Source: a virus
Reading direction: 5' to 3' (one strand)
DNA: 64,000 nucleotides
Virus record (IMG/VR): IMGVR_UViG_3300045988_145033
Location: 96,001 to 160,000 of that record
The notes below the pieces were generated by a model, which was not told where the DNA came from, did no database searches, and was given only the letters and a program-made list of their open reading frames with translations. The position numbers and the translations under genes were made by a program. Of this stretch, positions 8,230 through 51,160 are shown piece by piece. Numbering within the stretch: position 1 is the first letter of the stretch; each line of letters opens with the position of its first letter.

Positions 8230-8883
8230 ATGAGAGGTTTCTTAAATAAACTAGAAGAAGTTAATAAAAAGAAAAGACCAAATCTTTATGGTGAAGCTGA
8301 TATAGATGGCTTCGATACATCTACATTTGATTTACCTGATTATATGGGAGCAGATAATGACCCAGTTCCACCAGAACCTGAACCAGAAGAACCAGAGTTT
8401 CAAGAACCTGAAGATGATACAGGAGATGATATACCAGAACCCGAGCCTGAAGAACCAGAGTTTACAGACCCTGACCCAGATGATGGCTTTGACCCTGAAA
8501 ACCCTGAACTTCAAGAAGATGCAGGAGAACCCGGAGATACTCCAAATGAAGACAACGCTTTTACAGAAGGGGAAGATGAGGATACTCCTGTATTTAGAAG
8601 AAAGACTAAAAAACTTAATAAAGCATTTGCATCTTTGTATGACCAATATAAAGACTTAATAGCAAAGCTTAAGAATATAGACGCTACAGGAGATAAGGCT
8701 ACAGTTATAAATACTTATATAGATGAGTATGAAGAAAACTTACAAGCCTTAGTTGAGTATGTAAATGATAATACTGATACTTGGGTTATAAGATTTCAAA
8801 CCTATGTAGAATTTCGTGCTACATTTGCAACTATTAATAAGAAACTGTCTTCTATAGAGGAAGATGTAAATATACTGTCGTAA
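8230..8883 (+). CDS. acidic Pro/Glu-rich protein with tandem PEPEPEEPEF repeats (scaffold-like)
   Basis: 217 aa, very acidic. Two 30-nt near-identical repeat units at 8371-8400 and 8434-8463. Lies between the 485-aa gene and the putative capsid gene, as scaffolds do in T4-like layouts. Confidence 0.5.
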   Translation: MRGFLNKLEEVNKKKRPNLYGEADIDGFDTSTFDLPDYMGADNDPVPPEPEPEEPEFQEPEDDTGDDIPEPEPEEPEFTDPDPDDGFDPENPELQEDAGEPGDTPNEDNAFTEGEDEDTPVFRRKTKKLNKAFASLYDQYKDLIAKLKNIDATGDKATVINTYIDEYEENLQALVEYVNDNTDTWVIRFQTYVEFRATFATINKKLSSIEEDVNILS

Positions 8884-8908: not shown

Positions 8909-8949
8909 GATTAAAATTAAAATTGAAAAATAACTAGGAGGTATAAAAT

Positions 8950-12080: not shown

Positions 12081-12872
12081 ATGGATAAAAGACCAAAGAT
12101 TATAACTCTTTATGGAGAGTCTGAAATATCAGCAACTCCTAGAAAGAGAATAGTTGATAGAAAATATGTAGGTAATCAAATAGTATGGGTACAAGAATGT
12201 CTTACATTTGGAAGAACTACAAGAAATGGAAATGATTTCTTAGAAGAAAACTTTAGAGAAGCAGTAGAAGACCCTTTCGTTAATGACAGATTAAAAGGTA
12301 ATAGATTCTTCTCAGAACTTGACCACCCTAGCAAAAGCGATACAGAAAGATTCGTGCAAGTATACTTACAAAATATAGCATATAGAAATAAGCACTTCTT
12401 CTTTGAAAATGGAACTATGTATTCTGAATGTGAAACTATAGATACTCCATCTGGAAAGATAGTAAGAACTCTTATAGAATCTGATGCTGAAATAGCTGTA
12501 TCTTTTAGAGGATATGGAGTGCCTAAACTTGACGGAAATGGAGAAACTATAAAGCTTGTAGCATTTGACGTTGTATATCAACCAAGTGACCCAACTTCAC
12601 TTTCAAGAGAAGAATCATTTAGAAATCAAATGTATGCAGAAGGATATAGTGCATCTGAGTTCGCAAGAATAGCAATGAGGGATAATTTAGTTGCTTATGA
12701 TACTATTCCTAAAAATTCAGGACTTTATGCTGAAGCTTCATTTGAAGGTATAAGACCTAAGCAAGTTATAAAATACGGAGATGACGTTTTAGGTATTACT
12801 TATGAAACTAAGGAAGAAATAGAAAGAAATGCTAAAGCTCAAGGATTTAGAAACTTTATCATAAATCTATAA
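12081..12872 (+). CDS. head-associated protein, 263 aa, with three Y(G/A)E motifs
   Basis: RBS AGGAGG. Motifs LYGESE, MYAEG and LYAEAS. Located within the structural block. Confidence 0.45.
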   Translation: MDKRPKIITLYGESEISATPRKRIVDRKYVGNQIVWVQECLTFGRTTRNGNDFLEENFREAVEDPFVNDRLKGNRFFSELDHPSKSDTERFVQVYLQNIAYRNKHFFFENGTMYSECETIDTPSGKIVRTLIESDAEIAVSFRGYGVPKLDGNGETIKLVAFDVVYQPSDPTSLSREESFRNQMYAEGYSASEFARIAMRDNLVAYDTIPKNSGLYAEASFEGIRPKQVIKYGDDVLGITYETKEEIERNAKAQGFRNFIINL

Positions 12873-13957: not shown

Positions 13958-14000
13958 AAAAAAAAATAAAGGGAGGCGAAAGCCTCTCCTTATTTTTATT
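13958..14000. terminator. bidirectional terminator between convergent genes (gggaggcgaaagcctctcc)
   Basis: A9 upstream and T-run downstream. Confidence 0.5.
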
Positions 14001-15039
14001 CTGTCATTTCTCTTAGCTCTTTATAAAGCTTTTCATTAAATAGCATTTCTTCTCTATCAAGTTCCATAACATAGCAAGTTATCTCAGTTCTTTCAAGAGT
14101 ACGAGATGTCCAGAATTCTACATATCCACTATTACGTGGGTAGAATTCTTTTGGAACATTTACCATATCTATAAAGTAGACTCTCTTATTTGCTATTTTA
14201 AGAGTCTTATACTTTTCAGGTATTTCATTCCAATCATCAGAAGGAAGCTCAAGAACTTGTACTCCAGAAAGTCCAACTTGAGTTGCAAACTCAGTATTAA
14301 TATGATTACCCTTATGATACGCTAAGATAAATGGTGTAGTTGTATCTACAGTATTTTTCTTAGAAGACGCATAATAGTTATTTAATTGGTCTTCCGTCAT
14401 ATACTTAGATGCTACTTTAAATCCGAATTCGTATATAAGATAACCTATACAAGCATCAGCTATCTTATTATCGTTATCGAATTTAATATGCTTTAAAACG
14501 TTAGATGAGTAATTACCCACCTTTAAAAGTTTCCAAAGCATAGGAAGATTTAGGAAGTTTGCTGAAATTTCGGGAATTACACCTTTATCAAGCTTGTACA
14601 TTATATCATCATAAGGTGCAAGTCCTAACGCATATACCACATTTCTACAGTGATATATACGGATTTTCTTTTCAGAAGCTTCTACAATATCGGTAAATCT
14701 TGTGTGAGCATCATTATCCCACTCACCACTATCGTAGAAATCTATCATCTCAAATTCAGCCGTTTGAGACGTCTTATCAAACTCGCCAGTGTATCTTAGA
14801 AGTTTGTGAGATATATTTCCACCACTTCTATGAGATACGCATACAACATCACCTTTATTAAGTATAAATAAACCGTGATTGTCATTTGATAAAGTTCCAC
14901 CGGTACGGATAAAAATACAATCTTTCTTATGACCATATTTATCTCCGATAAGTTCAGTATGTCCTGAGTTAGTCATACCTCCCCCTTTTTCCCAGAATGC
15001 TGGGTAACCCTTTTTAGTAAATGCTATTTGTAATTTCAT
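13996..15039 (-). CDS. hypothetical early protein, 347 aa
   Basis: Stand-alone cassette with a TA-rich early promoter variant upstream and a terminator downstream. RBS AAGGAGG. Confidence 0.5.
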   Translation of the reverse strand: MKLQIAFTKKGYPAFWEKGGGMTNSGHTELIGDKYGHKKDCIFIRTGGTLSNDNHGLFILNKGDVVCVSHRSGGNISHKLLRYTGEFDKTSQTAEFEMIDFYDSGEWDNDAHTRFTDIVEASEKKIRIYHCRNVVYALGLAPYDDIMYKLDKGVIPEISANFLNLPMLWKLLKVGNYSSNVLKHIKFDNDNKIADACIGYLIYEFGFKVASKYMTEDQLNNYYASSKKNTVDTTTPFILAYHKGNHINTEFATQVGLSGVQVLELPSDDWNEIPEKYKTLKIANKRVYFIDMVNVPKEFYPRNSGYVEFWTSRTLERTEITCYVMELDREEMLFNEKLYKELREMTE

Positions 15040-18826: not shown

Positions 18827-19315
18827 TTATTTGTCATCCATTGTAGCGTGGTCTGAGTCAATGATAGTTTGTTCAGGTTCTATTCTTTCGTCATTCATAT
18901 CACCTAAAGTAACTTCACCGTCAGCTTTATTTTCAGTTTCAGGCATTATATCTGTAGCTCCTACTTTAATAGAGTCTCCATCAATAACAGCACCTGCTCC
19001 TGCTTCTAATTGGTCTATTAATGATTCGTGGAATTTAGTAGCTTTGTCTATTTTACCTAAAGCTTCAGCATATTCAACTTCAACATTAACACTTTCTACA
19101 GTGTCACTTCCCGGTTCAACTGGTATATCTACAGTTATACTTGGAACTTCAGGAGCATCAGCATCTACATTAACTTCAGCCGTGTCACTTGCTTCTATTG
19201 AAACAGTTTGAGCATCATCTAAAGTGTCAGCTGGAGCTACTTCAGATTCTCCGTAAATATTTGGTTTATTGAATAAAGAGAAGTCTACTCCGTCTTTACC
19301 TATTTTTTGATACAT
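18827..19315 (-). CDS. highly acidic protein, 162 aa, with a VEYAEALG motif
   Basis: D/E-rich throughout. Late element AACAtttttaTA upstream. Palindromic terminator downstream. Confidence 0.5.
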   Translation of the reverse strand: MYQKIGKDGVDFSLFNKPNIYGESEVAPADTLDDAQTVSIEASDTAEVNVDADAPEVPSITVDIPVEPGSDTVESVNVEVEYAEALGKIDKATKFHESLIDQLEAGAGAVIDGDSIKVGATDIMPETENKADGEVTLGDMNDERIEPEQTIIDSDHATMDDK

Positions 19316-19355
19316 ATTTATACCTCCTAGTTATTTTTAATTTTATTAATTTCTC

Positions 19356-20352: not shown

Positions 20353-21708
20353 CTATCTCTTCACCTCCGCTAAATCATCTAATAGGAACTTAGGGTCTTT
20401 TTGAGCTCCATCTATTGTAAGTTTTAGAAGATATAGTATTATAGGAACTATTAAGAAATCCTCTAAAGTATCATCAACTTCCAAATCTACAGTTTCATCT
20501 AAGATACTTGCTGGGTCTTCAGCTATTCTCATAATAGATGATATAATATCACTATCGCTATCCAAAAGCTTTTCTGAACTTTTCTTTAAACTGTCAAGCT
20601 CTACAAGAGTTGGAATCTTTTTAACATTCGAGCTATCCTTTATTAGATACTCAGCTGTCTTATCAGACGGTATTCCTATAGACATTAAAGCTACATTTGG
20701 AGATGCGAATTGATTTAACTGAGTTAGATATCTTTGCTTAGGAAACCATTTCATAAGCTTTGTATATCTTCCACCTACTTCAAATTCCTTTACATCAAAT
20801 CTTGAAAAATTACCCAAAAAAGAAGATAAGTCATCATAAGTTATATCACCATACATTGATTTTTCAAAATCAAATGGTGTCATATCCTCATGTGTGAGTA
20901 TAAGCTCACCTACATACTTTTGTGAAAACTCATACATTATAGGACGCATTCTTCTTTGAAACTCTACAAGCATAGGGGAGTAGTATATCATATCTATTGG
21001 GTGCTCGGGATTATCTTCACATACATGAGAATATAAAAGTAAATTATATTCTTCATTGTAAAACGTTTCCAAGTATTCATTATTAATTCTTGCATAAGTT
21101 GCAACTAGCTTTCTTATATAAGCTACCGTTCCTATATCTATGATAGTTACTTTATTGTCTCCAACATTACCCATCACAAAATCGTAATTTCCTACAGTTT
21201 GCTTTTCAAGTTGCTTAAACTTATCAGGGTCTTTGTCAGATACAGCATAATAAGTATAAGTTATATGATGATGAGGTTCTTGAAGTATCGTATTAGCATC
21301 AGCTCTTGTCACACGAAACATAAGTTCCTTTGCTCCCGGTAAGGATATTACAAGCAAATCTCCTACTTGTGGATAAAACCCCGGAAGAATTAAACTCTCA
21401 TTATCAAGCTCTATAGTTATACCTTTTATATCCGTCTTTCTAGTTTCCCTATTAAACTCTTTAAAGGCATAAAGCGGAGTATTATTAATTCTATTATATC
21501 TTACAGGTGAGTCTGGTGATAACCAGTCATATACTTGTCCCATACCTTTAGAACCCGTACTATCAGCATTTGATATATTATAGTATCTACAGAAGATAGG
21601 TTTTGACTCCATTCTTCTTACATTGTATTTATAGTATCTTCTCGCTTGATTTCTGAGCATCTTATTCGTCGTATCAACCGTTTGGTCTTTTAAATTCAAG
21701 GATTTCAC
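20353..21708 (-). CDS. hypothetical protein, about 450 aa (start more likely the TTG at 21699)
   Basis: The track start is a GTG with zero spacer to GGAGG, whereas a TTG 9 nt downstream has good spacing. Late element AACAcctttTTA upstream on the minus strand. Confidence 0.45.
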   Translation of the reverse strand: MKSLNLKDQTVDTTNKMLRNQARRYYKYNVRRMESKPIFCRYYNISNADSTGSKGMGQVYDWLSPDSPVRYNRINNTPLYAFKEFNRETRKTDIKGITIELDNESLILPGFYPQVGDLLVISLPGAKELMFRVTRADANTILQEPHHHITYTYYAVSDKDPDKFKQLEKQTVGNYDFVMGNVGDNKVTIIDIGTVAYIRKLVATYARINNEYLETFYNEEYNLLLYSHVCEDNPEHPIDMIYYSPMLVEFQRRMRPIMYEFSQKYVGELILTHEDMTPFDFEKSMYGDITYDDLSSFLGNFSRFDVKEFEVGGRYTKLMKWFPKQRYLTQLNQFASPNVALMSIGIPSDKTAEYLIKDSSNVKKIPTLVELDSLKKSSEKLLDSDSDIISSIMRIAEDPASILDETVDLEVDDTLEDFLIVPIILYLLKLTIDGAQKDPKFLLDDLAEVKR

Positions 21709-21807: not shown

Positions 21808-23640
21808 ATGGAAGATATAACTTTATATGGAAATGAAGTTCTACCAGAAGTAAGAGAATATATGTATGCTGAAGCTGAAATGACAGTATCGTATAATTTA
21901 ATACAAGATTATTTCTTCAATCTTATGGATAGCTTTAGAGATGAAACTATATACTATGGTGAAGCTGATGATGATGGTGAAGTTAAAACTGGATTTTTTG
22001 CGAAGATAGGACAAATGTTTGTAAAGATGTGGAAAGCTATTATAAACTTTATTAAAACTGTATTTAGAAAAACTTGGGAAATACTTTCAAAACCATTCAG
22101 TTTTAAAATGAATAGAGCTAATAACTCGTCTGGTGGCGGAGGTGGCGGTGGCTCATCAACACCTACTGAAAGAACTGCTGGTGGAGGCGGTGCTGAAGAA
22201 ACTGCTAATAGAATAACTACTACAGATTTTAGACAATACCAAGAAATTGCAAACTTAAGAAGAAATCTAGTTTCATATCTTGGAAAAATGTCTACGGTAG
22301 AAAAGGATAAACTTTTAGCTACATTTGCTATAATGAAGGATGATAGTGTAAAAAATATAAGTCTTACTAAGATAGACAATAAAGGTACATACGATACACA
22401 CATAAAAAATATGGAAGCTATAAAGAAGAACTTGCTTGAAAACTTTAAACTTATATACGAATATGATGAGTTAAAGGATACAGATGCTATTAAAAACGTA
22501 GCAGCTACTCCAGCCATGAACCTTGTGTATAAGGAAGTACCAAAGCATTCTTTAATAAATGTAAAATATGAAAAGCCTAAAGAAGATGAAGAAGTAGTTA
22601 AAAAAGGAATAGCATCTCTATTCGGGATACAAATGATAGCTAAAAAGATTATAGAATGTACATCTAAAGTTACAGATACGACACAAACTGTTCAAAAGAA
22701 AAAGTCTGAAGCTAGTATAGCTAAAGATATTAAGAGTTTGATTAATACAATATTAGCGATAAATATGAGTGATACTGGAACTCACACTGGACTTATAACG
22801 GATAAGGATAATGATATAAAGGTATTTGGAGACTATAATATAGTAGAGCTTTCTAAAGCTGTTAATGTTATATACGTATACTCATTTGGAGAAGATGCTT
22901 TAAAATTACTTAAAAAAGACCCTACAGGTATAATACAAGCTAAATTAAATTCAAATACAGTAATAAAGCCAGAAGCATATGAAACTAATAAAGGTATATT
23001 CTTAAAGAAAATGGTTAATGTCAATATAGCTGACAAGGTGTTAGAAACTGTTCAAATTAAAGCCGATGGAAATCAACCAGAATCTTTAACTTCTATTCTT
23101 AGTAAAGAATTTAAAGCAGCCGAAGGCAAAAAACCAGCAACAACATATGATGCACTAAGAGACCAGCTACTTAATGCTTTAGCGACATTTAAAGATTTAA
23201 GAGAGAATAATGAAAAGAAAGATAACGATGGTAAAACTGAATATGATAAAATAACAGATGAAAATGAAGCAGTTAAAGCGTCTGATATGTGGAAAGGTAT
23301 AGTAACTAATGCTGCAAAGATAATTAAGAATGTAGCTAGTAGTGCACCAGAAATGGCAAGAACTATAACTAGAATAGATACAGCCATAGTTATACATAAG
23401 CACTTATATAATACTATTCTTAGTGTATCGGTTACTGCTAACTTATGGGACGTATATTGTCATATGTATAAGGTAGCTAAAGACAACTTAGAGAATAATA
23501 AAGAGTTGATAAAGGATACAACAGGAAGCGATGACGCTACTAAAGAGCACAAACTAATAAAAGAAAAGTTAGCAGCATTAGATACAGAAGTTGCAGATTT
23601 AAAAGTTCAACTACAAAAAGAACTTAAAGGAAAACAATAA
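21808..23640 (+). CDS. paralog 1 of a propeptide/hydrophobic-helix/poly-Gly family, 610 aa (candidate internal or ejection protein)
   Basis: N-terminal YMYAEAE and YYGEADDDGE, then amphipathic helix GFFAKIGQMFVKMWKAIINFIKTVF, then G7 run. Late element upstream. Confidence 0.5.
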   Translation: MEDITLYGNEVLPEVREYMYAEAEMTVSYNLIQDYFFNLMDSFRDETIYYGEADDDGEVKTGFFAKIGQMFVKMWKAIINFIKTVFRKTWEILSKPFSFKMNRANNSSGGGGGGGSSTPTERTAGGGGAEETANRITTTDFRQYQEIANLRRNLVSYLGKMSTVEKDKLLATFAIMKDDSVKNISLTKIDNKGTYDTHIKNMEAIKKNLLENFKLIYEYDELKDTDAIKNVAATPAMNLVYKEVPKHSLINVKYEKPKEDEEVVKKGIASLFGIQMIAKKIIECTSKVTDTTQTVQKKKSEASIAKDIKSLINTILAINMSDTGTHTGLITDKDNDIKVFGDYNIVELSKAVNVIYVYSFGEDALKLLKKDPTGIIQAKLNSNTVIKPEAYETNKGIFLKKMVNVNIADKVLETVQIKADGNQPESLTSILSKEFKAAEGKKPATTYDALRDQLLNALATFKDLRENNEKKDNDGKTEYDKITDENEAVKASDMWKGIVTNAAKIIKNVASSAPEMARTITRIDTAIVIHKHLYNTILSVSVTANLWDVYCHMYKVAKDNLENNKELIKDTTGSDDATKEHKLIKEKLAALDTEVADLKVQLQKELKGKQ

Positions 23641-23648
23641 TAAAATTA

Positions 23649-23678
23649 ATACTCCACCATTACGGTGGAGTATCTTTA
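23649..23678. terminator. bidirectional terminator between convergent paralog genes (atactccacc-attac-ggtggagtat)
   Basis: 10-bp perfect stem. Confidence 0.55.
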
Positions 23679-25310
23679 TTTATCATCGTCATCACTTTTT
23701 ACAGATATATAATATAGTGCTTGTACTACAGTTGATATATCTTCTTGAATCTTTTTATAGAATGGATTATTTACATTTCTTATAAATTTTTGAGATATAT
23801 CTACAATCTTTGATACAACCAGTGTTATATTGATACTACGATTTAAAATATTTTCTAATGCTATCTTTGTAGAATACTCATCGAATTGTAAAGTTTCATC
23901 TGATTGAAATTCATTTAGTTTATCTCTTATTTCCTTACCTTTACTATGTAGAGCATTTATAGATTTTGATAAATCGTTTAGTTCTATCGTATTATCGTCT
24001 ATAACCTTCATAAGTTTAGCTGTTATTCTAGTTTCTATATCAGCTAAATCAGAACGAGCTATAGCATAAACAGTTTTCTCATTATCGCTTAATTTTCTAA
24101 ATTCAGAGAAAACTAAAGTATTTTTGATTTCAGCTAAATTAGAATTTCTAACGAACTTCATATCTTGTAGTATACTCGCAAGTGTATTTAAAGTCTTATC
24201 GTCAAGTATAGGTATATTCTGAACCTTACCTTTAGTTTCGTTTATAATTCTACTTTCAAGTTTAGCGACATCTGGACTTCCTTTTAACTTATCGTCTATA
24301 GACAGTATAAGATTCGTGTATTCTGTTGCTGATTTTTCCGATAATCCCTCAAATACAGTAGAGTACCCTGTATTAATTTCTTTCTGCAACTGTGTTATTT
24401 CAGCGTCTGTAGGCTTTCTATTTGCATTACCGTCCGTATCAATCTTAATTCTTTTTATAGTCATTATAGAATTTGGAGTAGTCTGATAAATCATAGCAAC
24501 CAACATAAGAGAGTCAGCATTTATAAGAGTATCGGTCATGAAATCTGCTATAAAATATTTACCACCTTTAGACAAAGCTTGTATTTTTTCAACTTTATCG
24601 AAATATGTATCAATATCTTCGAAATCCTCAAAAGGATATTGTCTTAAAATATCGCTATATTTAGTTCCGTCAAATGCTTTATCTTCAGCGATATTTCCAC
24701 GAACAACATCAAGAACAAGATTTGCTATATCTTTTGATATAACAAATACACCATTTGATGTCTTGTCTATATCAACTCTTATATCCTTTACAGCTTCCCT
24801 ACTTATATCATTTATCATCTCGTCAGTTAAAGGTTTACCTTCTTCGTTGCTTATAATATTATCAAGTCTTTTACGTATTCTTAAAGTAGCTTCTCCGTCT
24901 CTTAAACCGCCATATTTACGTATAGCTTCTTTAGCTCTTAATGTCATCATCTTAAGATTAGCCGCTCTTATAATTTCAGGTTGACGTCCGACTCTTCCAA
25001 TATTTACAGAAGAGTAGTCTGAACCTCCACCTCCACCCGAATAAATGTCAACACGGTCTCCTTTTAGTTTATCTTTGACTTTCTTGAATATGAAGCTAAA
25101 GATACCGAATATAACAGTTTTAATTCCCATCAATATTTTAAGCAATAAAGATATAGCCGATTTAGCCATATTTCCTATAGCTTGAAAGATAGACTTTACA
25201 GATTCATCATAAAGTCTAAGTTTATTTTCTGTCTCTATTCTATCCTTTAAAGCTTGTAGCTGATATGTAGCAGCTACAGCTTCGTAATATTCTATAGAAT
25301 AATCTTCCAT
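23676..25310 (-). CDS. paralog 2 of the same family, 544 aa
   Basis: Hydrophobic helix ISLLLKILMGIKTVIFGIFSFIF followed by a GGGGG run. RBS AAGGAAGTG. Confidence 0.5.
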   Translation of the reverse strand: MEDYSIEYYEAVAATYQLQALKDRIETENKLRLYDESVKSIFQAIGNMAKSAISLLLKILMGIKTVIFGIFSFIFKKVKDKLKGDRVDIYSGGGGGSDYSSVNIGRVGRQPEIIRAANLKMMTLRAKEAIRKYGGLRDGEATLRIRKRLDNIISNEEGKPLTDEMINDISREAVKDIRVDIDKTSNGVFVISKDIANLVLDVVRGNIAEDKAFDGTKYSDILRQYPFEDFEDIDTYFDKVEKIQALSKGGKYFIADFMTDTLINADSLMLVAMIYQTTPNSIMTIKRIKIDTDGNANRKPTDAEITQLQKEINTGYSTVFEGLSEKSATEYTNLILSIDDKLKGSPDVAKLESRIINETKGKVQNIPILDDKTLNTLASILQDMKFVRNSNLAEIKNTLVFSEFRKLSDNEKTVYAIARSDLADIETRITAKLMKVIDDNTIELNDLSKSINALHSKGKEIRDKLNEFQSDETLQFDEYSTKIALENILNRSINITLVVSKIVDISQKFIRNVNNPFYKKIQEDISTVVQALYYISVKSDDDDK

Positions 25311-25322
25311 TTTATCACTTCC

Positions 25323-26765
25323 TTATTTTAAAAATTCAGCGAAATTAGTTCTAATGAATTCTTCGTTTTCTTTATCGTCTCCAGATACAAGTTGTAATAG
25401 ATTTTTCTCTTTACCTTTTATCTTTCCAGTTATGTTATTTAGTATATCTCTTCTCATGTTATGGAATATTTTACTATCTATTACATTTTTAACAACTTGT
25501 CCAATTTGTACCGAATACATAACTGAAGATGTCATAGCTATCGTAACGGTAATCCATTTATTTATTTCAGATATTATACCTTTATCTTCAATAGCATTAT
25601 TCTCATCTAAGTTATCTACTATAGACTTTATAGAATTTTGATATCCTGATAGTTTTCCAATTTTTTCTTTTATTGTTTTTATTTTACTATCGTCAATATC
25701 TTTACCTTCTGCTAGTTCACTAAATATACTATATATTTTTGATTGATTGCTTATTTTTTCAGCGTTAAATGAGATTTGTAAATTCATTCTTTCATCATCA
25801 GCACTATCATTATCAAATTCCCAAGTAAAATTATAAAATGTGCTCATTAAATTCTTATGACTTTCTGATTTTATTTGTAGAACTTTAGATATATCACCGT
25901 AGTTTAAAATGTTCTTTGGAGATGCACTGTCAGTATATAGTTTAGATAAAACTTCGTTCGAATCTTTTTCAAATTTATCCACAGACTCTTTATTACTGAA
26001 ATCAACACTTTGAGTTTTTAATGGAGCTAGTAAAGCTATTAAATCTTCTTGCACATCTTTATATAAAGACTTTGTAGTATTTGCAATATTAGAACTTACA
26101 CCTATAGCTGTACCGTCGACTTTCCCGATATATCTATTCACATTTAATTGAGTTGCAGCAGATAGTAGTAATATACCCGGTGCATTTAATACCGTTTCTA
26201 ATATGAATTTAGGAAAAGTATCGTCATTGTCACTAGATACAATCTTTTTAAACTCAGCATTTGATTTATTATAGCTCTCATCATTTAATAAAACGACTGG
26301 TTCGCTCATATTGCTGTATTTATCTCTTATCGTAGACAATGTCGCTCCTTCGAAAACTTTATTCATAAGTTCAGACCTTATTTTTAATTTAGGTGTGCTA
26401 GAAGATGAGCCTCCACCACCTCCACCACCGAAAGAAATACCATTACCTTTCTTTCTTCTGAAATACATAATAAGTCCTATAATTACTAAAAGTAGTAGTC
26501 CTTTTATTCCTAATACCATTTTAAGTATAATAAGTATAGCTTTCTTTATGAATACTAAAAGTGCCGCAAATATTCCTCCAACGCTTTCAGCATACATTAT
26601 TTCTCTTCTTTGATACATCTCAAGCATTACTCTACCTTCTTCTAAAGCCATATAACTTTCGCAAATAGCAAGCTCATCAACTTCAGGAATTTCAATATCA
26701 CGATGTCTGCTACTATTATCAATATCAGCTACAGACTCCATATATAAATTTACTATATTATCCAT
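25323..26765 (-). CDS. paralog 3 of the same family, 480 aa (strongly hydrophobic helix pair)
   Basis: MYAESVGGIFAALLVFIKKAILIILKMVLGIKGLLLLVIIGLIMYF, then G7 run. Late element with TAGATTAAAA upstream. Confidence 0.5.
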   Translation of the reverse strand: MDNIVNLYMESVADIDNSSRHRDIEIPEVDELAICESYMALEEGRVMLEMYQRREIMYAESVGGIFAALLVFIKKAILIILKMVLGIKGLLLLVIIGLIMYFRRKKGNGISFGGGGGGGSSSSTPKLKIRSELMNKVFEGATLSTIRDKYSNMSEPVVLLNDESYNKSNAEFKKIVSSDNDDTFPKFILETVLNAPGILLLSAATQLNVNRYIGKVDGTAIGVSSNIANTTKSLYKDVQEDLIALLAPLKTQSVDFSNKESVDKFEKDSNEVLSKLYTDSASPKNILNYGDISKVLQIKSESHKNLMSTFYNFTWEFDNDSADDERMNLQISFNAEKISNQSKIYSIFSELAEGKDIDDSKIKTIKEKIGKLSGYQNSIKSIVDNLDENNAIEDKGIISEINKWITVTIAMTSSVMYSVQIGQVVKNVIDSKIFHNMRRDILNNITGKIKGKEKNLLQLVSGDDKENEEFIRTNFAEFLK

Positions 26766-26796
26766 ATTAAACCTCCATTTTTTTTTGTTTTTAATC

Positions 26797-26808
26797 TAAA
26801 ACGCTGTT
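26797..26808 (-). promoter_or_regulatory. late promoter AACAgcgtttTAGATTAAAA
   Basis: Minus strand, upstream of 25323..26765. Confidence 0.5.
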
Positions 26809-26836
26809 TTAAAGGTATTTATAAGATAAAAAAAAA

Positions 26837-26866
26837 TAATACCCCGAAGGGTATTATTTTATCATA
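26837..26866. terminator. palindromic terminator (taatacccc-gaa-gggtatta)
   Basis: Same family. Confidence 0.55.
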
Positions 26867-26870
26867 TAAT

Positions 26871-28109
26871 TTATTCCTTAGCTGTAGAAGTTTGCACATT
26901 TTTCAATTTATCTAAAGATGTACATAAAGGTTTTACATAACCGATAAATCTATCAAGTTGTATTTTACCTGTGTTGAATGCAGTTACAACAGCTGTAGAA
27001 ACTCTTGTCATGTATGTAGAGTACACAGTAGATATTCTCATAAGAGCAGACGCGTTATCTTTTACATTTTGATTTTCATTTTCTTTATCAGTACGGTCAT
27101 TATAAATACCTTCGGCTTTATTTTCGATTCTTGCCATTAATTTCTTCAAGTCGTCGATTTTTTCTTTATATTCAGATACACCTTTATCTAAAGCGTCTTC
27201 TATATCATCATATACGATATTTTTAGCCGCACTATTTAATTTAGCTATAGCTTTAGGTATATCTCCTCCTTTCTTAACTGTGTCAGCTTTAGAATCCCAT
27301 AATTTTGCAATAGCTTCTGCTGGTTTTTGAGTTGAAGTGTCACCGAATATAGCACCATTTAAGTCAGGGTCAGTAATACCACCATTTTTTATAGCACTAT
27401 CGTATATGTATCTGACTAATGATTCGTCGTCTCTCATATGTCTAGCTTGTTGAACATCTTTAAATAGCCCTTCAACAGTTTTACCAGCACCTTCACTAGC
27501 AGATTTTAAATCTGTAATCTTTTCTAGTTCTTCAGTTAATTTTGAAATCGTTACAGTTTCTCCAGTTTTATCAGTTAAATTAATTTGTAGTAAAGTTTTA
27601 GTTCTTGTTGTAGCACCCTTAGCTAGTTTACTTCCTATAGTACCCATAATTATATTAGATATAGCTTCGTAAGCATAATCTTTAAAACTTATTTTATCGT
27701 CTTCATTGAAAGTTGTAAGTTTAGAAACTTTGTCTAATACATCTTTAATGTATTGAATATCCATTCTGTAGTTTTTGTTAGCTTTGAATCTTCCTAATAA
27801 TTTGATTACAAAGTCTTTTGCTTTTTCATACAATTTAACGATAGCTGCTATAATCTTTTTGAAGAACCCACCTTCAGCTTCTCCATACATAATAGCTCCT
27901 ACTAAAGATAGTCCTTTAGAATCCATTAATTCTTGAGTAGCTTCAGCATATAAAACACCATTTCTTTCCATATTTGCAGACGCTTCAGCATAAGCCATGA
28001 ATGATTCCATTAAGTCGGCTTCAGATGCTTCAGGTACTCCACCGTATAATGTTCCATGTTGTGGTAATGTTGCTTCACGATACAATTTCATGAATGTATT
28101 TTCTGACAT
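26871..28109 (-). CDS. paralog 4 of the same family, 412 aa
   Basis: AYAEAS, LYAEAT, IMYGEAEGGFFKKIIAAIVKLY. Late element with TAGATTAAAA upstream. Confidence 0.5.
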   Translation of the reverse strand: MSENTFMKLYREATLPQHGTLYGGVPEASEADLMESFMAYAEASANMERNGVLYAEATQELMDSKGLSLVGAIMYGEAEGGFFKKIIAAIVKLYEKAKDFVIKLLGRFKANKNYRMDIQYIKDVLDKVSKLTTFNEDDKISFKDYAYEAISNIIMGTIGSKLAKGATTRTKTLLQINLTDKTGETVTISKLTEELEKITDLKSASEGAGKTVEGLFKDVQQARHMRDDESLVRYIYDSAIKNGGITDPDLNGAIFGDTSTQKPAEAIAKLWDSKADTVKKGGDIPKAIAKLNSAAKNIVYDDIEDALDKGVSEYKEKIDDLKKLMARIENKAEGIYNDRTDKENENQNVKDNASALMRISTVYSTYMTRVSTAVVTAFNTGKIQLDRFIGYVKPLCTSLDKLKNVQTSTAKE

Positions 28110-28153
28110 ATTTTATACCTCCTAGTTATTTTAAAATTTATTTTGTTTTAATC

Positions 28154-28270: not shown

Positions 28271-31200
28271 ATGTCTGATATAAAAAGAATAGCATTTATA
28301 CCCTATGACAAGAAGCATAGAAACTATACGGAAGCTGATATTGTTGTAGGGGAGCTTATTATAGATAGCGAGACAGGTTATGCGTGGATAAAAGTTAAAT
28401 CAGGCGATTTGATTCCACTTCGTGGTGCAGGATATATAGATTTGATAAACTATATCGCTTCCACTATGGCGATAGGAATAGAGCCTAAAGATATACATTC
28501 ATTCTTACTAGATACAGCAAAAAGAATTCCTAATGAGAATATACCTACAGGTGTTTTAAAAGTAAGAGTACCGAAAGGAACTTCTACAGAATTTAAAGAA
28601 ATAGGAATAGTTACAAATGGAGAAAATTGTATAATATACACAGGAGAAAAAGATAGTGTCACACAAGAACCTATCACAGTTACAGTAAAGGACGTTTATT
28701 TAGACTATTCTAAATTTAAGAAAGAAACTAAAGAAACTCTTGCAGACCATACTACAAGAATTACATCTTTAGAAACTGAAATAGCTCAAAGAGCAAAAGA
28801 TACTAAAACTTTCTATGATAAATTTACAGAAGCTGAATCTGCTGATTTGGTTTATTGTATTCACCCAGATATGACAGCAACTAAACCAACAGAACCCACA
28901 AACTACATATTTGAGACTTCTATGGTTTTACATATGGATAATGGAGAGTCTGTAAATAGACACTCACTTGGATATCATATGGATTACAAAAATCACAGAA
29001 TAGATAAAGATAATGCTTATGTAAAGGACATAGGTAATAAGGTAGATTTATCTGTAAGATTTTATTATAAAAATGAATGTATTTGGGTACAACCTACTCA
29101 AATAGACGGTGAGTTTATTTTAAGAGATAAATCACCAAACGCTGGCTCATTTGTACCTTATAAAGGACAAGTTACAAAAGAATCATTTGCAGCATCAGGT
29201 TTAACACCGGGAGATTTAATAATTCCTTTAGGTTCTTCTAATAATGAAGAATCTGTATCTTGGACTTATTATCAAGCAAATCATGGTTTTCCACCTATGA
29301 GTGCTGTATACTTTGATAAAGAAGATAATAAATGGAAACTAGCAACTTTAAAGAATAGAGCTAAAAATATAGCAATTCCTATAGATGAGAACTGGCTTAC
29401 TATATATTCGGCTGGACATATTAAAGTACCAGAAAATGCTAAAGCTAACTTAAGTGATGAAGATTTCGTATCTAATGAAATGTACTACTTAAGCCAAACT
29501 ATAAATGGTGGATTTCAAAAAGAATATCCAACTTATATTTATCAGGAACTAGGATACGCTTATATGAAATACGGTTCTATGTGGTTTGCAATTCATATAG
29601 ATACACCAGTTGAACTTGCAGCTTACACTATTAAGAATATGGCAACTAAAGAAGATTTAAAGAATAGACAACTTGTGGTACAAGTAGCAACTCCGGATAT
29701 AGCAAAGCTTGATGAACCATTAGGAACTGTAATGACAGTCGCTGATGATAGTGGAGAAGAAACTTGGCATATAAGAAAGGTACAAGAAACTAGAAAAGAT
29801 AGTGAAAGTATACAAATAAGAAATGGTTTATGGGCAAATATCATCGAAGTATCTGGTAAGATAAAAGAAGAGGATATGGCTGGTAAACTAGATAAAGGTA
29901 TAAACTTTGCAAAATATAAAGCTGAGTATCCAGATGCTGTTGCTATTATAGAAAAGATAATAAATGGTATAGGGTATAAAACTGGAGATAGATTAAAGAC
30001 TTGGCAAGAGCTTATGGAAGATTTAGAAAAGTATGTAAAGAAAGAGCAAATAACTCAATCTATGACAGAAAATAGTATAGATAAAATACCTTCTGCTAAT
30101 ATCTTTAATCAACTTCTAAAACTTGTACAAGATATTAAACTCGGACATACTGGAAGTATAGTACCGCAAGAAAATACAGCGGTACATATTCAATCTGGTA
30201 TACTTCAAAGAACTGCTGTGACTATTCAATCGAATGTAGACGTTTTATACAATCCTACATTATTTATAGACGGTCAGCAATACGATAGAGCTTACTGGTC
30301 ATTTGATGCAAATACTGGTATCATAACTTTAAAAGAGCCTTATGATATGTATACAGATGCTAGATGGACAATATTTGACGTATTTCCTACAGATATTAAA
30401 TATATATCAAATAGTGTAGGAGCAATTCAAATAGCACCTTATGCTAACTCGCTTAAAGATTATGACGTCATAAAATGTCTTGGAGAAAATTCAAAATACG
30501 ACGGTGGTTATCAACTACGTATGGTTGTACCAGAATCTGATATTACAAACTCGTCATCTCAATGGCATTTCTTAGCTAGTCAACCTAGAGTAAAATTTAA
30601 AAATAAATGGCTTGTAGAGCTTCCAAAAACTCACGTAAAAAGAGAACTTGAAAGAAAGTTAGAAAAAGAAATATTTGACGCATATGTTAAAAAGAATGCA
30701 GTATATACTTTAGAAGATGTAGGATACGATAATATCGAAGGTATAGGATACGTGAAGGGTAAATATAAACTTAAATCTGAAAATGAGCTTACATTAAGAT
30801 TTAATATAAAGGTCACTAAAGACTTACTTGTACAACCGCCACAAGGACAAACAGAAGACCCTTTAAAGAATATGCAAATGGATTATTTAAGATTTGTAGC
30901 TAATCTTCCAGAAGGTATAGAGAAGAGTGATTTATTATTTGAGTATGCTCAAGTTTCAGTATACGATTATAAAGAAGAGCCAGATTTTATAGATGTCGAT
31001 GAATATAACTTCACTGATAGTTCCAGTCAAACTCATCAAAGAAAGACTAGAATTAAGAAATTTGGTTTTGGAATTATGTATCAGTATACTTCAGATGTAA
31101 GACCGCTTACAAAATACGACGGACTTTCAAGTAGACCTACTCCTAGTGGAAATAAAAATAGAGACGGTTCACTTGAGTATATGGACGATATGTCGGTAAA

Positions 31201-31417
31201 CTATGACGTTTATAATGAGCTTAAAACTAGAGATAAGAATAATAATGTTATAGGAGAAGGAAGATTTGGAACTAATCCAATGGAACCGAAGTTCCCTAAT
31301 CATAACGCATTTATTCTTTTAATTCAAAGATACTTTGAAGGTTTGGCTGTAGGTTTTAATAAGCACTTATTTGAAGACTACTACTTAAATGTGACTATTA
31401 AAATACCTATGAGATAA
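28271..31417 (+). CDS. large virion structural protein, 1048 aa (tail fibre or baseplate candidate)
   Basis: Size and position. RBS AAGGAGG. AACA-N7-TA variant upstream. Confidence 0.4.
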   Translation: MSDIKRIAFIPYDKKHRNYTEADIVVGELIIDSETGYAWIKVKSGDLIPLRGAGYIDLINYIASTMAIGIEPKDIHSFLLDTAKRIPNENIPTGVLKVRVPKGTSTEFKEIGIVTNGENCIIYTGEKDSVTQEPITVTVKDVYLDYSKFKKETKETLADHTTRITSLETEIAQRAKDTKTFYDKFTEAESADLVYCIHPDMTATKPTEPTNYIFETSMVLHMDNGESVNRHSLGYHMDYKNHRIDKDNAYVKDIGNKVDLSVRFYYKNECIWVQPTQIDGEFILRDKSPNAGSFVPYKGQVTKESFAASGLTPGDLIIPLGSSNNEESVSWTYYQANHGFPPMSAVYFDKEDNKWKLATLKNRAKNIAIPIDENWLTIYSAGHIKVPENAKANLSDEDFVSNEMYYLSQTINGGFQKEYPTYIYQELGYAYMKYGSMWFAIHIDTPVELAAYTIKNMATKEDLKNRQLVVQVATPDIAKLDEPLGTVMTVADDSGEETWHIRKVQETRKDSESIQIRNGLWANIIEVSGKIKEEDMAGKLDKGINFAKYKAEYPDAVAIIEKIINGIGYKTGDRLKTWQELMEDLEKYVKKEQITQSMTENSIDKIPSANIFNQLLKLVQDIKLGHTGSIVPQENTAVHIQSGILQRTAVTIQSNVDVLYNPTLFIDGQQYDRAYWSFDANTGIITLKEPYDMYTDARWTIFDVFPTDIKYISNSVGAIQIAPYANSLKDYDVIKCLGENSKYDGGYQLRMVVPESDITNSSSQWHFLASQPRVKFKNKWLVELPKTHVKRELERKLEKEIFDAYVKKNAVYTLEDVGYDNIEGIGYVKGKYKLKSENELTLRFNIKVTKDLLVQPPQGQTEDPLKNMQMDYLRFVANLPEGIEKSDLLFEYAQVSVYDYKEEPDFIDVDEYNFTDSSSQTHQRKTRIKKFGFGIMYQYTSDVRPLTKYDGLSSRPTPSGNKNRDGSLEYMDDMSVNYDVYNELKTRDKNNNVIGEGRFGTNPMEPKFPNHNAFILLIQRYFEGLAVGFNKHLFEDYYLNVTIKIPMR

Positions 31418-33260: not shown

Positions 33261-33467
33261 TTAAATAAGCTCAACTAAATACTTAATAATTGTATATATC
33301 ATAAAGTACCACATACAAGTAAGTATAAAGAATTCTAAATTTACCGAAAATACAGTCTTTTCCTTTTTAGAATTAAGATGCACCATAAAGTAATCTATCA
33401 TCATAACTAATGCGAATACGATACCTATAATAAGAGCAATGTAGTGAAGTATTTTAAATAATAGCAT
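33261..33467 (-). CDS. small membrane protein, 68 aa (2 TM)
   Basis: Hydrophobic. Start overlaps the upstream stop (TAATG). Confidence 0.4.
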   Translation of the reverse strand: MLLFKILHYIALIIGIVFALVMMIDYFMVHLNSKKEKTVFSVNLEFFILTCMWYFMIYTIIKYLVELI

Positions 33468-34618
33468 TAGAATACACCAACCTTTCTCATATCAAATATA
33501 GATTTAATAAGTTCTATATCGGAACCTAGTCTTCTTTTCTCATCTTCAGTCACTATCTTATAGACGTCTTCTATATCATTTGAATTTACAGATAGATTAC
33601 CTTCATAAGCAAAACACATATCATTAAAGTTAGTTTTACCTTTATCTGGAGTATCACGTCTTATATCTGTACTACCTTTTCTTAGCTTATCTTGATATTT
33701 CCAAGCAATATCTGCAAAGTCTATAAATATACCATCCATACATTCAAATTTCAAAAAGTATTCAAAGAACTCTAAACTGTATCTTTTTACTATATCATTT
33801 ATTTCTGGATTCTTCTCAGCTATTTCTTTATTCTTTCTATCTATACCCATAGCAAGAGATGAGTTGTGAACACCGTCATTTGTTATAGATACTGTAACAT
33901 AGTAGTCTCTATACTTTTCAGATAAAAGCTCTTCTTTCTTTGCAGTTGCAGCTTCTACCCATTCATCTAAAGGTACAGTAAATATATCAAAGACATAAGA
34001 GTATTTATTTCTCTTGTCTCTTAAATCCACAAGCTTTGCAAATATATCTCTCATAGTTTTAGAAGATAAATCTTTTTCCATACGAATAGCTACATCTCTT
34101 TCTATATTATACCTTTTTACGAAATCAGAATAAGTGTATAAATCCTTCATTTCAGTACCTTCAAGTAAGTCTTTTATACAAGCATAAAAGAACGAGCCTA
34201 ATACATATTTGTATTGGTCGTCGCTACTTTCAGGATTTATAGTATGTCTCCATTTATCATATCCTTTCATATCTATAATTTCTCCGAAGTCTCTTATTTC
34301 TATGATATGGTAAAGTCCTTCATCGTCTTTTATAAGTTCTCCATTTTTGTCAAGATAGCTTATAGCATAAAAATTGCTAGTTGCTAAAGTTTTATCTTCT
34401 TTATTAAGTTCAAGATATGATACAGCAAGAATTACCATATCGTTATCTATGTTTGCGTCGTAGAACGCTTTACTTCCTGTAGAATATATCTTTCTTTGAT
34501 ACTCTACCTCTCTTTTATAAGCGGTTTTAAGCTTTTCCTCATACTTATCATTTTTCAAAAACTCTCTTAACTTTTCACTTACATTTGCTAAAATTAGTGT
34601 ATTAACTACTATTTCCAT
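33467..34618 (-). CDS. hypothetical protein, 383 aa
   Basis: RBS AAGGAGG. Confidence 0.45.
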   Translation of the reverse strand: MEIVVNTLILANVSEKLREFLKNDKYEEKLKTAYKREVEYQRKIYSTGSKAFYDANIDNDMVILAVSYLELNKEDKTLATSNFYAISYLDKNGELIKDDEGLYHIIEIRDFGEIIDMKGYDKWRHTINPESSDDQYKYVLGSFFYACIKDLLEGTEMKDLYTYSDFVKRYNIERDVAIRMEKDLSSKTMRDIFAKLVDLRDKRNKYSYVFDIFTVPLDEWVEAATAKKEELLSEKYRDYYVTVSITNDGVHNSSLAMGIDRKNKEIAEKNPEINDIVKRYSLEFFEYFLKFECMDGIFIDFADIAWKYQDKLRKGSTDIRRDTPDKGKTNFNDMCFAYEGNLSVNSNDIEDVYKIVTEDEKRRLGSDIELIKSIFDMRKVGVF

Positions 34619-34640: not shown

Positions 34641-35612
34641 TTAATTAAATATTTGGTTACTATCTATTAAATTTCTCATATAAACTTCAGTGTCTTCTAT
34701 ATTCTTTAGAATCCTTTTCTTAATATCATCAGTTATTGCTTTACTCTCAAGTAAAGATGATACATAAACACCTTTAGCTAAATCTCCTTCTATATTAAGT
34801 TTATCCTTTATAGGATATATCTCTTCTCTTACTATACGAATAAGTCTCAGCCAAGCATCACATTCGTGCATATATCTTGGAATACTAAACTTATCTAAAA
34901 CTGGATTTACTTTAGTATTTACATACTCAAGTGCTGTGTCATAGTAAGCGTCCGTAATTGATAAACCTCTTGAAGTTACAGAAGTTTCACCATCTGTACA
35001 AGTTCTAAAGTTTAGGAACATACAGTTTTTATCTGTAGCTCCAATATCTTTCATTATATCGACTCCTACAAGTTTTGATATATCATCAGCCGTATACTCT
35101 AGCATTATAACGTCAAGAAGATTAGGATTGTCAAACATATCATTCACAAGGGAAGAGCTACAGCATTCCTTAATCTCTTCCCATATAAGTGCATCTGTGC
35201 AATCATCTTTTATTTTATATATTTTCTTTGTCCATTCTTTCATACTATACTTTTTAGGATTTCTCATATAATCATAGTATACAGGCATAAGTATATTATC
35301 TACCGCATAGCATTTAGATAAATCTAGTTTATCCTTAGACTGTATATATGAGCCTTTATATGTAAGAGTGGTATCTTTATCTTTAAGTCCTGTAAACACG
35401 TAGTCTTTAGTATGATGAACTTCATTATTTTCATCAGTATATACCTTTCTTATAACACGAATATCTACTTCTTTACTATCATATGTCTCCAATATAGCTT
35501 TGACTATATCCTTTCCAAATATAGACGTGTACATACTTTTAAAGAACTCGGTATCATTTTTGTGTGCTACTGCTGTATATATTTCAAATTTATGTACTTT
35601 ATATTTTCTCAT
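34641..35612 (-). CDS. hypothetical protein, 323 aa
   Basis: ORF. Weak RBS AAAAGGA. Confidence 0.4.
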   Translation of the reverse strand: MRKYKVHKFEIYTAVAHKNDTEFFKSMYTSIFGKDIVKAILETYDSKEVDIRVIRKVYTDENNEVHHTKDYVFTGLKDKDTTLTYKGSYIQSKDKLDLSKCYAVDNILMPVYYDYMRNPKKYSMKEWTKKIYKIKDDCTDALIWEEIKECCSSSLVNDMFDNPNLLDVIMLEYTADDISKLVGVDIMKDIGATDKNCMFLNFRTCTDGETSVTSRGLSITDAYYDTALEYVNTKVNPVLDKFSIPRYMHECDAWLRLIRIVREEIYPIKDKLNIEGDLAKGVYVSSLLESKAITDDIKKRILKNIEDTEVYMRNLIDSNQIFN

Positions 35613-51134: not shown

Positions 51135-51160
51135 AATATGGGGTTTTCACCCCATATTAT
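51135..51160 (-). terminator. intrinsic terminator overlapping the SLT gene stop (atatggggt-tttca-ccccatat)
   Basis: Palindrome spanning the TGA. Confidence 0.45.

Follow-up and report, generated by a model that had tools for sequence, protein, structure and literature searches.

The stretch of DNA examined here, called the window throughout, is 64,000 nucleotides (nt) long and covers positions 96,001 to 160,000 of the IMG/VR virus record IMGVR_UViG_3300045988_145033. To judge from its sequence, its source is a jumbo myophage of about 180 kb from Fusobacterium nucleatum, kin of JD-Fnp1, JD-Fnp4, JD-Fnp6 and JD-Fnp7. This work will focus on a cassette of four genes at positions 21808 to 28109, whose products we call A610, B544, C480 and D412 after their type and length. 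We believe the cassette probably encodes variable internal head proteins of the T4 and phiKZ kind that are processed by a prohead protease. The cassette and the signals around it are laid out as follows.

20353-21708: head-tail joining/virion protein gene, directly flanking the cassette
21808-23640, plus strand: A610 (A-type, 610 amino acids (aa)), from its open reading frame (ORF), a motif scan and the homology of its N-terminal module (N-module) to the B/C types
21808-21963, plus strand: predicted acidic propeptide of A610 (aa 1-52) with a net charge of -10; its end is the second Y-x-E site
23648-23674, no single strand: bidirectional terminator-like hairpin between the convergent A610 and B544 genes
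23676-25310, minus strand: B544 (B/C-type, 544 aa), from its ORF, the family alignment and a structural model
25077-25202, minus strand: hydrophobic Lys-striped helix of B544 (aa 37-78), with the conserved K50, K58 and K64 on one helical face
25323-26765, minus strand: C480 (B/C-type, 480 aa), from its ORF, the family alignment and comparison with the JD-Fnp phages
26466-26585, minus strand: hydrophobic helix of C480 (aa 61-100, SVGGIF...IMYF), with K74, K82 and K88 spaced as the B544 lysines are
26833-26860, minus strand: terminator-like hairpin after D412, parting it from the C480-B544 unit
26871-28109, minus strand: D412 (D-type, 412 aa), from its ORF, a motif scan and sub-threshold matches to the phiKZ_IP family
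28112-28131, minus strand: 20-nt leader with ribosome-binding site, AAATAACTAGGAGGTATAAA, upstream of D412, found as an exact repeat

The original prediction placed four ORFs here, starting at 21808, 23676, 25323 and 26871, and all of them are present as it said. Their products follow a common plan. The propeptide is acidic and has a Y-x-E site; after it comes a helix that is cationic and either hydrophobic or amphipathic, and then a C-terminal domain (C-domain) that diverges. Three of the four also have a Gly/Ser linker. The propeptides are 36-77 aa long and carry a net charge of -5 to -10, and the adjacent helices carry +4 to +7. A610 has its sites at aa 20-22 (YAE) and aa 50-52 (YGE), then a cationic amphipathic helix at about aa 61-100, a G7 run at aa 109-115, a G4 run at aa 125-128 and the divergent C-domain. 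Both of its sites are retained in the relative L014, whose A-type protein is 28.5% identical. The propeptide of B544 (aa 1-36) ends in L-Y-D-E; its G5 run is at aa 92-96 and an alpha/beta C-domain occupies aa 110-540. That of C480 (aa 1-60) ends in M-Y-A-E (YAE at aa 58), and the G7 run follows at aa 113-119. D412 has three Y-x-E sites (aa 40, 54 and 75) in a propeptide of aa 1-77, followed by the cationic amphipathic helix GGFFKKIIAAIVKLYEKAKDFVIKLLGRFK and a helical C-domain, with no poly-Gly. The run of five to seven glycines claimed for three of the four is thus where it was said to be.

Two other parts of the original description need adjusting. A Y(A/G)E motif was claimed for all four proteins, and every string quoted for it can be found, but B544 has no Y[AG]E; the aligned site there reads L-Y-D-E-S (aa 33-37). 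An amphipathic or transmembrane helix was claimed after the last motif. A helix does follow it in every case, but hydropathy is of transmembrane grade only in B544 and C480, whose Kyte-Doolittle maxima over 19 residues are 2.07 and 2.67. The helices of A610 and D412 combine a low mean hydrophobicity with a hydrophobic moment of 0.57-0.71, so they are amphipathic. An AlphaFold2 (AF2) model of B544 has a mean predicted local distance difference test score (pLDDT) of 77 and a predicted template-modelling score (pTM) of 0.72. It shows one long helix that takes in both propeptide and hydrophobic segment, then disorder in the poly-Gly run, and a confident alpha/beta C-domain, for which neither PDB nor BFVD gave a significant match.

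The head block of the window (4273-28109) contains 17 Y[AG]E against a shuffle mean of 2.6, and none of 300 shuffles reached 17. The remainder of the window has 4 where 4.8 are expected, so the motif, when head and non-head genes are compared, is enriched in the head block only. We also rebuilt the whole JD-Fnp1 genome for a motif census. Its head block holds 22 Y[AG]E where 3.1 are expected (Poisson P about 4e-12). Of these, 17 lie within the first 130 residues of their proteins. Outside that block there are 32 against 18 expected; among the proteins there are the portal and RNA polymerase subunits, possible further substrates. An extended form, [LMIYA]Y[AG]E[AGSM], which was defined post hoc from the same data, occurs 14 times in the head block of the window against 0.19 expected and nowhere else in it against 0.29. 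Since B544 has LYDES and its orthologues have YGE, YSE, YNE or HGE at this site, the motif is really closer to [LM]-[Y>H]-[small]-E with S/A/G after it. The sites hold their position in relatives whose proteins are only 31-51% identical.

The motif was also said to lie near the N-terminus of the head proteins that carry it. This is so for most of the sites, but not for those of a 490-aa protein or for two of the three in the product of the gene at 12081. The 490-aa protein (4273-5745, minus strand) adjoins the terminase and has two Y-A-E near its C-terminus, at aa 361 and 383; an orthologue with 31% identity retains one site, at aa 347. Positions like these would imply C-terminal processing of a head protein.

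The product of 12081 turns out to be the prohead protease itself, which the original prediction listed only as another carrier of the motif. It and the other motif-bearing proteins nearby are these.

8230-8883, plus strand: hyper-acidic 217-aa scaffold-like or core-like protein, N-L-Y-G-E-A at aa 18-23, 59 Asp plus Glu among 217 aa
8950-10704, plus strand: putative major capsid protein, 584 aa, with conserved sites at aa 40, 91 and 116 in a poorly conserved N-terminal region of 118 aa
12081-12872, plus strand: prohead maturation protease, 263 aa, of the T4 gp21 / Peptidase_S77 family (Pfam, PHROG)
18827-19315, minus strand: hyper-acidic 162-aa protein, sites at aa 21 and 82, 40 Asp plus Glu among 162 aa

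The protease assignment is borderline by Pfam (Peptidase_S77, 27.2 bits against a cut-off of 27) and much stronger by PHROG (phrog_207, E=2.5e-17). Its orthologue in L019, a relative known from a metagenomic sequence of 169 kb (identity of the head proteins 31-51%), also carries PF03420. A phmmer search of PDB with the protease gave no match, and an IMG/VR scan with it gave nothing beyond loci that are 97-98% identical. The three Y-x-E sites of the protease, at aa 11, 185 and 216, are all outside the catalytic match (aa 47-173), and the L019 orthologue, 38% identical, has its sites at aa 9, 183 and 213. Sites that flank the catalytic domain in this way mirror the C-terminal autocleavage of SPN3US gp245 (PMC5694885).

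The 584-aa protein provides the best statistical case for positional conservation. Among nine homologues of 51-76% identity, invariance is seen at 7 of its 9 motif positions and at 8 of the 109 other N-terminal positions (Fisher P=3.9e-6), and strong conservation sets in directly after E118. Because the motif positions are invariant within a variable N-terminus and conservation is strong from E118 on, the pattern is, read from the alignment, the signature of a cleaved propeptide region. The capsid-protein candidate of L019 retains all three sites. Both hyper-acidic proteins have a Y-G-E site about 20 residues from the N-terminus, and the L019 orthologue of the 217-aa protein has K-L-Y-A-E-A(E) near its own, with the Tyr at aa 11. 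By analogy the two look like scaffold or core proteins such as T4 gp22, gp67 and gp68. Another protein beside the cassette, of 1048 aa (28271-31417, plus strand), begins ...KKHRNYTE|ADIV, with Y-T-E-A at aa 18-21, and the diverged L014 has Y-N-E-A. This could be a short capsid targeting propeptide of the T4 type, and the protein hence another substrate of the protease.

The original prediction likened the motif to prohead-protease sites. With a protease gene 9 kb away, sites in the protease itself and invariance in the capsid candidate, the idea that Y-x-E is a prohead-protease cleavage site is strongly supported in silico.

There are also hints about expression. The leader AAATAACTAGGAGGTATAAA has three exact copies in the window where none is expected by chance. 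Besides the copy upstream of D412, one lies at 8928-8947 (plus strand) before the 584-aa gene and one at 19317-19336 (minus strand) before the gene of the acidic 162-aa protein, which suggests that all three genes are alike in high-level late expression. The cassette can be linked to the head genes because D412 has its leader in common with the capsid candidate and an acidic head protein, and because the head-tail joining gene adjoins. The window shows no enrichment of the upstream word TTAGATTAAAA, and a sigma-70 promoter scan did no better than shuffles (54 found, 49 expected).

The original prediction treated all four proteins as paralogues, and we can agree with this only in part. By hhalign, B matches C with a probability of 97.6%, B matches a JD-Fnp1 paralogue with 99.2% over 488 columns, and A matches the B/C types in the N-terminal module with 94.9% over 93 columns. 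D reaches 45% with A and 19% with B/C. On these probabilities we limit paralogy to A610, B544 and C480 in the N-module and to B544 and C480 throughout; the kinship of D412 is not demonstrated by hhalign. What lies here is a cluster of paralogues among the head genes of a jumbo phage, with predicted protease sites ahead of a conserved domain.

Word-indexed searches for homologues were overwhelmed by Gly/Ser words and yielded no more than close relatives, so an exhaustive HMMER search was needed. Run with a B544 profile against 1.84 billion representatives, it found only 18 family clusters, all of 495-640 aa save two short fragments. Those we looked up have no functional name, and those we traced sit on contigs of 140-181 kb from the same phage clade. 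In a 20-sequence alignment of the B/C types Glu at P1 never varies and Tyr at P3 hardly does (His in two), which makes them the most conserved residues of the propeptide. The E-S-V-G-G-I-F junction is conserved, and a K/G/K pattern in the helix (LKIxLGxKG) and the Gly run are invariant. The C-domain has motifs of its own: YSxIL..P, a Gln and NPIYxxIxED.

Our analysis of variation goes beyond the original prediction. The cassette is a hypervariable island: the N-terminal handle is conserved, and behind it old C-terminal alleles are reshuffled. The flanking proteins are 91-100% identical among the phages of the JD-Fnp group; the cassette proteins are 32-55% identical. Identity falls from 85-100% to 15-40% near residue 110-120, at the linker, and between A610 and its JD-Fnp1 counterpart the drop, near aa 110, is from 100% to some 20%. 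C480 can be aligned to JD-Fnp proteins over only its first 110 or so residues, and its C-domain allele has no detectable counterpart in JD-Fnp1, 4, 6 or 7. These four phages (174-180 kb) are the sole megablast matches of the cassette region, and the matches are limited to the first 320-370 nt or so of two of the four genes.

Substitution rates show the same break. The flanks have a synonymous divergence (dS) of 0.2-0.5 and a ratio of non-synonymous to synonymous divergence (dN/dS) of 0.03-0.13, and the N-modules of A610, C480 and D412 are similar. In the divergent C-domain alleles dS is saturated, with dN at 0.5-0.9 and dN/dS at 0.5-0.65. At identical residues with at least four codons, third positions differ at 0.34-0.68 in the divergent alleles against 0.15-0.28 in the flanks, a synonymous divergence of two to three times that of the flanks. 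Because this exceeds the flanks, the C-domain alleles must be older than the backbone and have been swapped by recombination. The alleles also assort independently. D412 is 97% identical to its counterpart in L005, where C480 is 46% and B544 49% identical; in L008 the values for C480 and B544 are 79% and 93%. Three other genes are more variable than their neighbours, which are 95-100% identical at the amino acid level: 33467-34618 (67-74%), 34641-35612 (76-85%) and 13996-15039 (83-95%), all on the minus strand.

Copy number varies from three in L019, through four in the window, L005 and L008, and five in JD-Fnp1, 4, 6 and 7, to six in L014, and every cassette we examined has one A-type and one D-type gene. 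JD-Fnp7, JD-Fnp4 and JD-Fnp6 (L002, L003 and L004) have, with the head-tail joining gene on one side and the A-type gene on the other, an extra E-type gene of 528 aa that the window lacks. The E-type protein has a single KKLYAES site, no hydrophobic helix and no poly-Gly, and hhalign matches the B/C types to it with 90.5% probability over 313 C-terminal columns.

The relation of D412 to the internal head proteins of phiKZ deserves separate mention. A distant D-type gene had borne a faint phiKZ_IP flag. Scanning six D-type proteins with PF12699 (phiKZ_IP) gave colinear matches in five, at E=5.5e-5, 0.016, 0.053, 0.45 and 0.53. Four of the five match in one stretch that begins with the first residues past the predicted cut (residue 82 in D412), at profile position 101, and runs to near the end of the profile. 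The best-scoring match is a partial sequence that starts at the same profile position (101) and is split into two stretches. None of 20 B/C-types and neither of two A-types scanned matched. With a profile hidden Markov model (HMM) of 11 phiKZ-like internal proteins the D-types rank 1, 2 and 5 among 264 proteins, with weak E-values. In phiKZ gp93-95 an I-S-x-E site is followed by a K-rich amphipathic helix, as in D412. No consistent match came from scanning the D family against PHROG. We regard the link of D412 to the phiKZ internal head proteins as a weak lead, not as membership.

A conserved propeptide with a variable body is the pattern of internal head proteins, an analogy that we regard as well supported. 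We propose that the four proteins would be made late as precursors, whose acidic propeptides would target them to the prohead core and neutralise the cationic helix next door. In the prohead the gp21-type protease (12081-12872) would cut after the Glu of [L/M]-Y-[small]-E, before S/A/G, and the same enzyme would trim the capsid protein, the two acidic scaffold-like proteins and itself. The mature N-terminus would be an amphipathic helix in the A and D types, or a Lys-striped, transmembrane-like helix of about 40 residues in the B/C types. The Gly/Ser linker would couple this helix to the variable C-domain in the A and B/C types; D412 has no linker. The proteins would be packaged together with the DNA and reach the cell, where the freed helix would engage the host membrane, and their variable domains would act on the host or evade its recognition. 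The conserved N-module would double as a homology arm for the exchange of C-terminal alleles between phages.

The island itself invites a different emphasis. In a variant of our explanation that gives the helix another role, which is possible though we would not expect it, the variable C-domains would be effectors injected against host defence or for host takeover, as in the T4 IPI* model but larger, and the helix would be part of the packaging handle and nothing else. The conserved handle, the swapped old alleles and the copy number of 3-6 do recall the internal-protein loci of T-even phages (PMC3012670), and the C-domain of B544 folds confidently in the AF2 model. However, no C-domain matches an enzyme, inhibitor or defence-related family in Pfam, PHROG, PDB or BFVD. 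The helix, moreover, is kept in the predicted mature protein, and it is conserved more strictly than a mere handle requires.

There is also a bolder form of our own proposal, which we offer tentatively and think rather doubtful as a whole. The B/C types may be an undescribed class of capsid-delivered, protease-armed membrane proteins in which the propeptide serves as a safety catch. Freed by the prohead protease, the helix would oligomerise on ejection in the host cytoplasmic membrane, where it would form or anchor a conduit for DNA or seed an early vesicle like that of phiKZ. Host immunity would exert frequency-dependent selection on the swapped C-domains.

Everything that argues for processing and head association fits equally well if the proteins never leave the capsid. 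They would then be processed internal head proteins of a DNA spool, inner body or assembly scaffold, whose helices bundle or bind DNA and whose variability reflects weak constraint on a role as space filler. There are precedents, since phiKZ gp89 and gp162 are kept within the head (bioRxiv 10.1101/2024.03.24.586471) and lysines of T4 internal proteins contact DNA (PMC3012670), and a C-domain dN/dS of 0.5-0.65 is compatible with relaxed constraint. But relaxed constraint alone does not explain a synonymous divergence of two to three times that of the flanks or the independent assortment of alleles. Nor does this scenario account for a helix that is conserved in detail (the invariant K/G/K and SVGGIF) and is of transmembrane grade in the B/C types, so we think it unlikely. 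It is very improbable that these are non-virion membrane proteins of the infected cell, with a role in superinfection exclusion, lysis control or envelope remodelling and with a Y-x-E that is coincidental or otherwise used: B544 and C480 do resemble single-pass signal-anchor proteins, exclusion and receptor-related genes are typically hypervariable too, and we only infer that the cassette proteins are in the virion, but the helices of A610 and D412 are amphipathic rather than transmembrane, the motif also marks the protease, the capsid candidate and the acidic core-like proteins without being enriched in non-head genes, its P1 Glu and P3 Tyr top the conservation of the B/C propeptide, the leader of D412 is that of the capsid-candidate gene, and the cassette is located among head genes.

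Our preferred explanation, processed and variable internal head proteins, has its own difficulties, and they should be stated together. A strongly hydrophobic segment of 40 residues would normally be routed to the membrane during synthesis, which speaks against its reaching a prohead. The four cassette proteins have no significant match in Pfam or PHROG; hits such as SelK_SelG and BChl_A were noise only. D412 scores 10.1 bits against phiKZ_IP (E=0.45) and the best D-type 23 bits, below the gathering threshold of 27. Comparing D-types to that family with hhalign gives a probability of 12-22%, and an HMM built from the three sequences of phiKZ gp93-95 did not single them out. The 584-aa protein is a putative capsid protein only: its AF2 model has a pLDDT of 48, for which reason we kept it out of the fold search, no HMM matched it, phmmer found nothing in PDB, and tblastn against phages matched only within its own phage group. 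The extended motif, as said above, was drawn from the data it was counted in. The paper that describes JD-Fnp1-5 contains no virion proteomics (PMC9670143).

It is useful to compare the cassette with better known systems. The closest appears to be that of phiKZ, 201phi2-1 and SPN3US (PF12699; phiKZ gp92-95, 97, 162 and 163; gp175/gp245). Like these, the phage is a jumbo myophage with multisubunit RNA polymerase genes; it has a gp21-type protease predicted to cut after Glu, long putative propeptides with multiple sites, and predicted C-terminal self-cleavage sites in the protease. In SPN3US and phiKZ cleavage follows A/S/G-x-E, with multiple cuts in long propeptides (PMC10052503, PMC5694885), and a protease of this type removes its own C-terminal tail (PMC5694885). 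As in phiKZ and SPN3US, paralogous head proteins are clustered, with conserved N-termini and a divergent remainder; the paralogous ejection proteins gp53 and gp54 of SPN3US have identical N-termini (PMC5694885). The phiKZ internal-protein paralogues are proteolysed, co-injected and associated with the lipid early-infection vesicle (bioRxiv 10.1101/2024.03.24.586471). The differences are also clear. The cassette has Tyr at P3 with a small P2 where phiKZ and SPN3US have Ala, Ser or Gly at P3. Its B/C types, unlike the phiKZ gp93-95 sequences, have a transmembrane-grade Lys-striped helix and a poly-Gly/Ser linker. It is hypervariable between near-identical genomes, and it has no significant sequence or fold match to the phiKZ group.

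With IPI, IPII, IPIII and Alt of the T-even phages the cassette proteins share the protease family and an N-terminal targeting propeptide that ends in Glu, where we predict the cut. They also share a conserved N-terminal handle with cargo that is highly diverse among related phages; in the T-even internal proteins the capsid targeting sequence alone is conserved (PMC3012670). However, the cassette propeptides have 36-77 aa instead of 10-20 and Y-x-E instead of L/I-x-E, and unlike the small basic T-even proteins the cassette proteins have 412-610 aa and a predicted mature N-terminus that is hydrophobic.

T7 gp14/15/16, P22 gp7/16/20 and phiX174 H are ejection or pilot proteins that travel in the capsid, have hydrophobic or amphipathic helices and are presumed to work at the host envelope while DNA is delivered. 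The cassette proteins, which we predict to be carried in the capsid, have such helices too, of transmembrane-grade hydropathy in B544 and C480 and no more than amphipathic in A610 and D412. They showed no homology to ejection proteins of this type in Pfam, PHROG, PDB or BFVD, and we know of no gp21-type cut that exposes the helix in them and of no hypervariable cassettes of their paralogues. As functional analogies between unrelated proteins we can add the precursors of membrane-active peptides, in which an anionic propiece precedes a cationic helix, and the protease-primed fusion peptides of viruses. As in the former, an acidic pro-region stands directly before a cationic hydrophobic helix, which one predicted cut would make N-terminal. 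What is distinctive about the cassette is the predicted Tyr at P3, the membrane-type cationic helix at the predicted mature N-terminus and the shuffling of alleles behind a conserved handle.

Elsewhere in the window there are further identified genes. Besides the gene listed here, we recognised genes for a multisubunit RNA polymerase beta-like protein, a primase, SbcC and a UvsX-like protein.

1724-4270: large terminase

The phage has several split genes of the multisubunit RNA polymerase type and also encodes a GroEL-like chaperonin and a 3026-aa protein adjoining the portal (45938-47824, minus strand, in the window, and genes 14, 72, 95, 99 and 153 of JD-Fnp1, L010-L012, taken together), and its lifestyle is phiKZ/AR9-like. 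A Pfam scan of ten window proteins found no chimallin, the protein of the phage nucleus. A 343-aa protein (51147-52178, minus strand) has an SLT lytic transglycosylase domain (E=1.1e-7) and is a candidate endolysin or virion-associated cell-wall hydrolase. The small ORFs at 15.6-17.9 kb show no paralogy among themselves. In the description of JD-Fnp1-5, 148 ORFs were left hypothetical (PMC9670143).

If our explanation is true, it would provide the first functional map of the head module in a group of jumbo phages of Fusobacterium nucleatum; of their 178 genes, about 150 count as hypothetical. These phages are under consideration for therapy. The work predicts a new specificity within the gp21 family of proteases, with Tyr at P3, and a list of substrates that can be tested directly. 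Overt membrane helices at the predicted cut would give a handle on the role of injected paralogues, and on membrane recruitment, in phiKZ-like phages. The variation in copy number and the shuffling of alleles suggest that the cassette is a likely front line between phage and host, which bears on host range.

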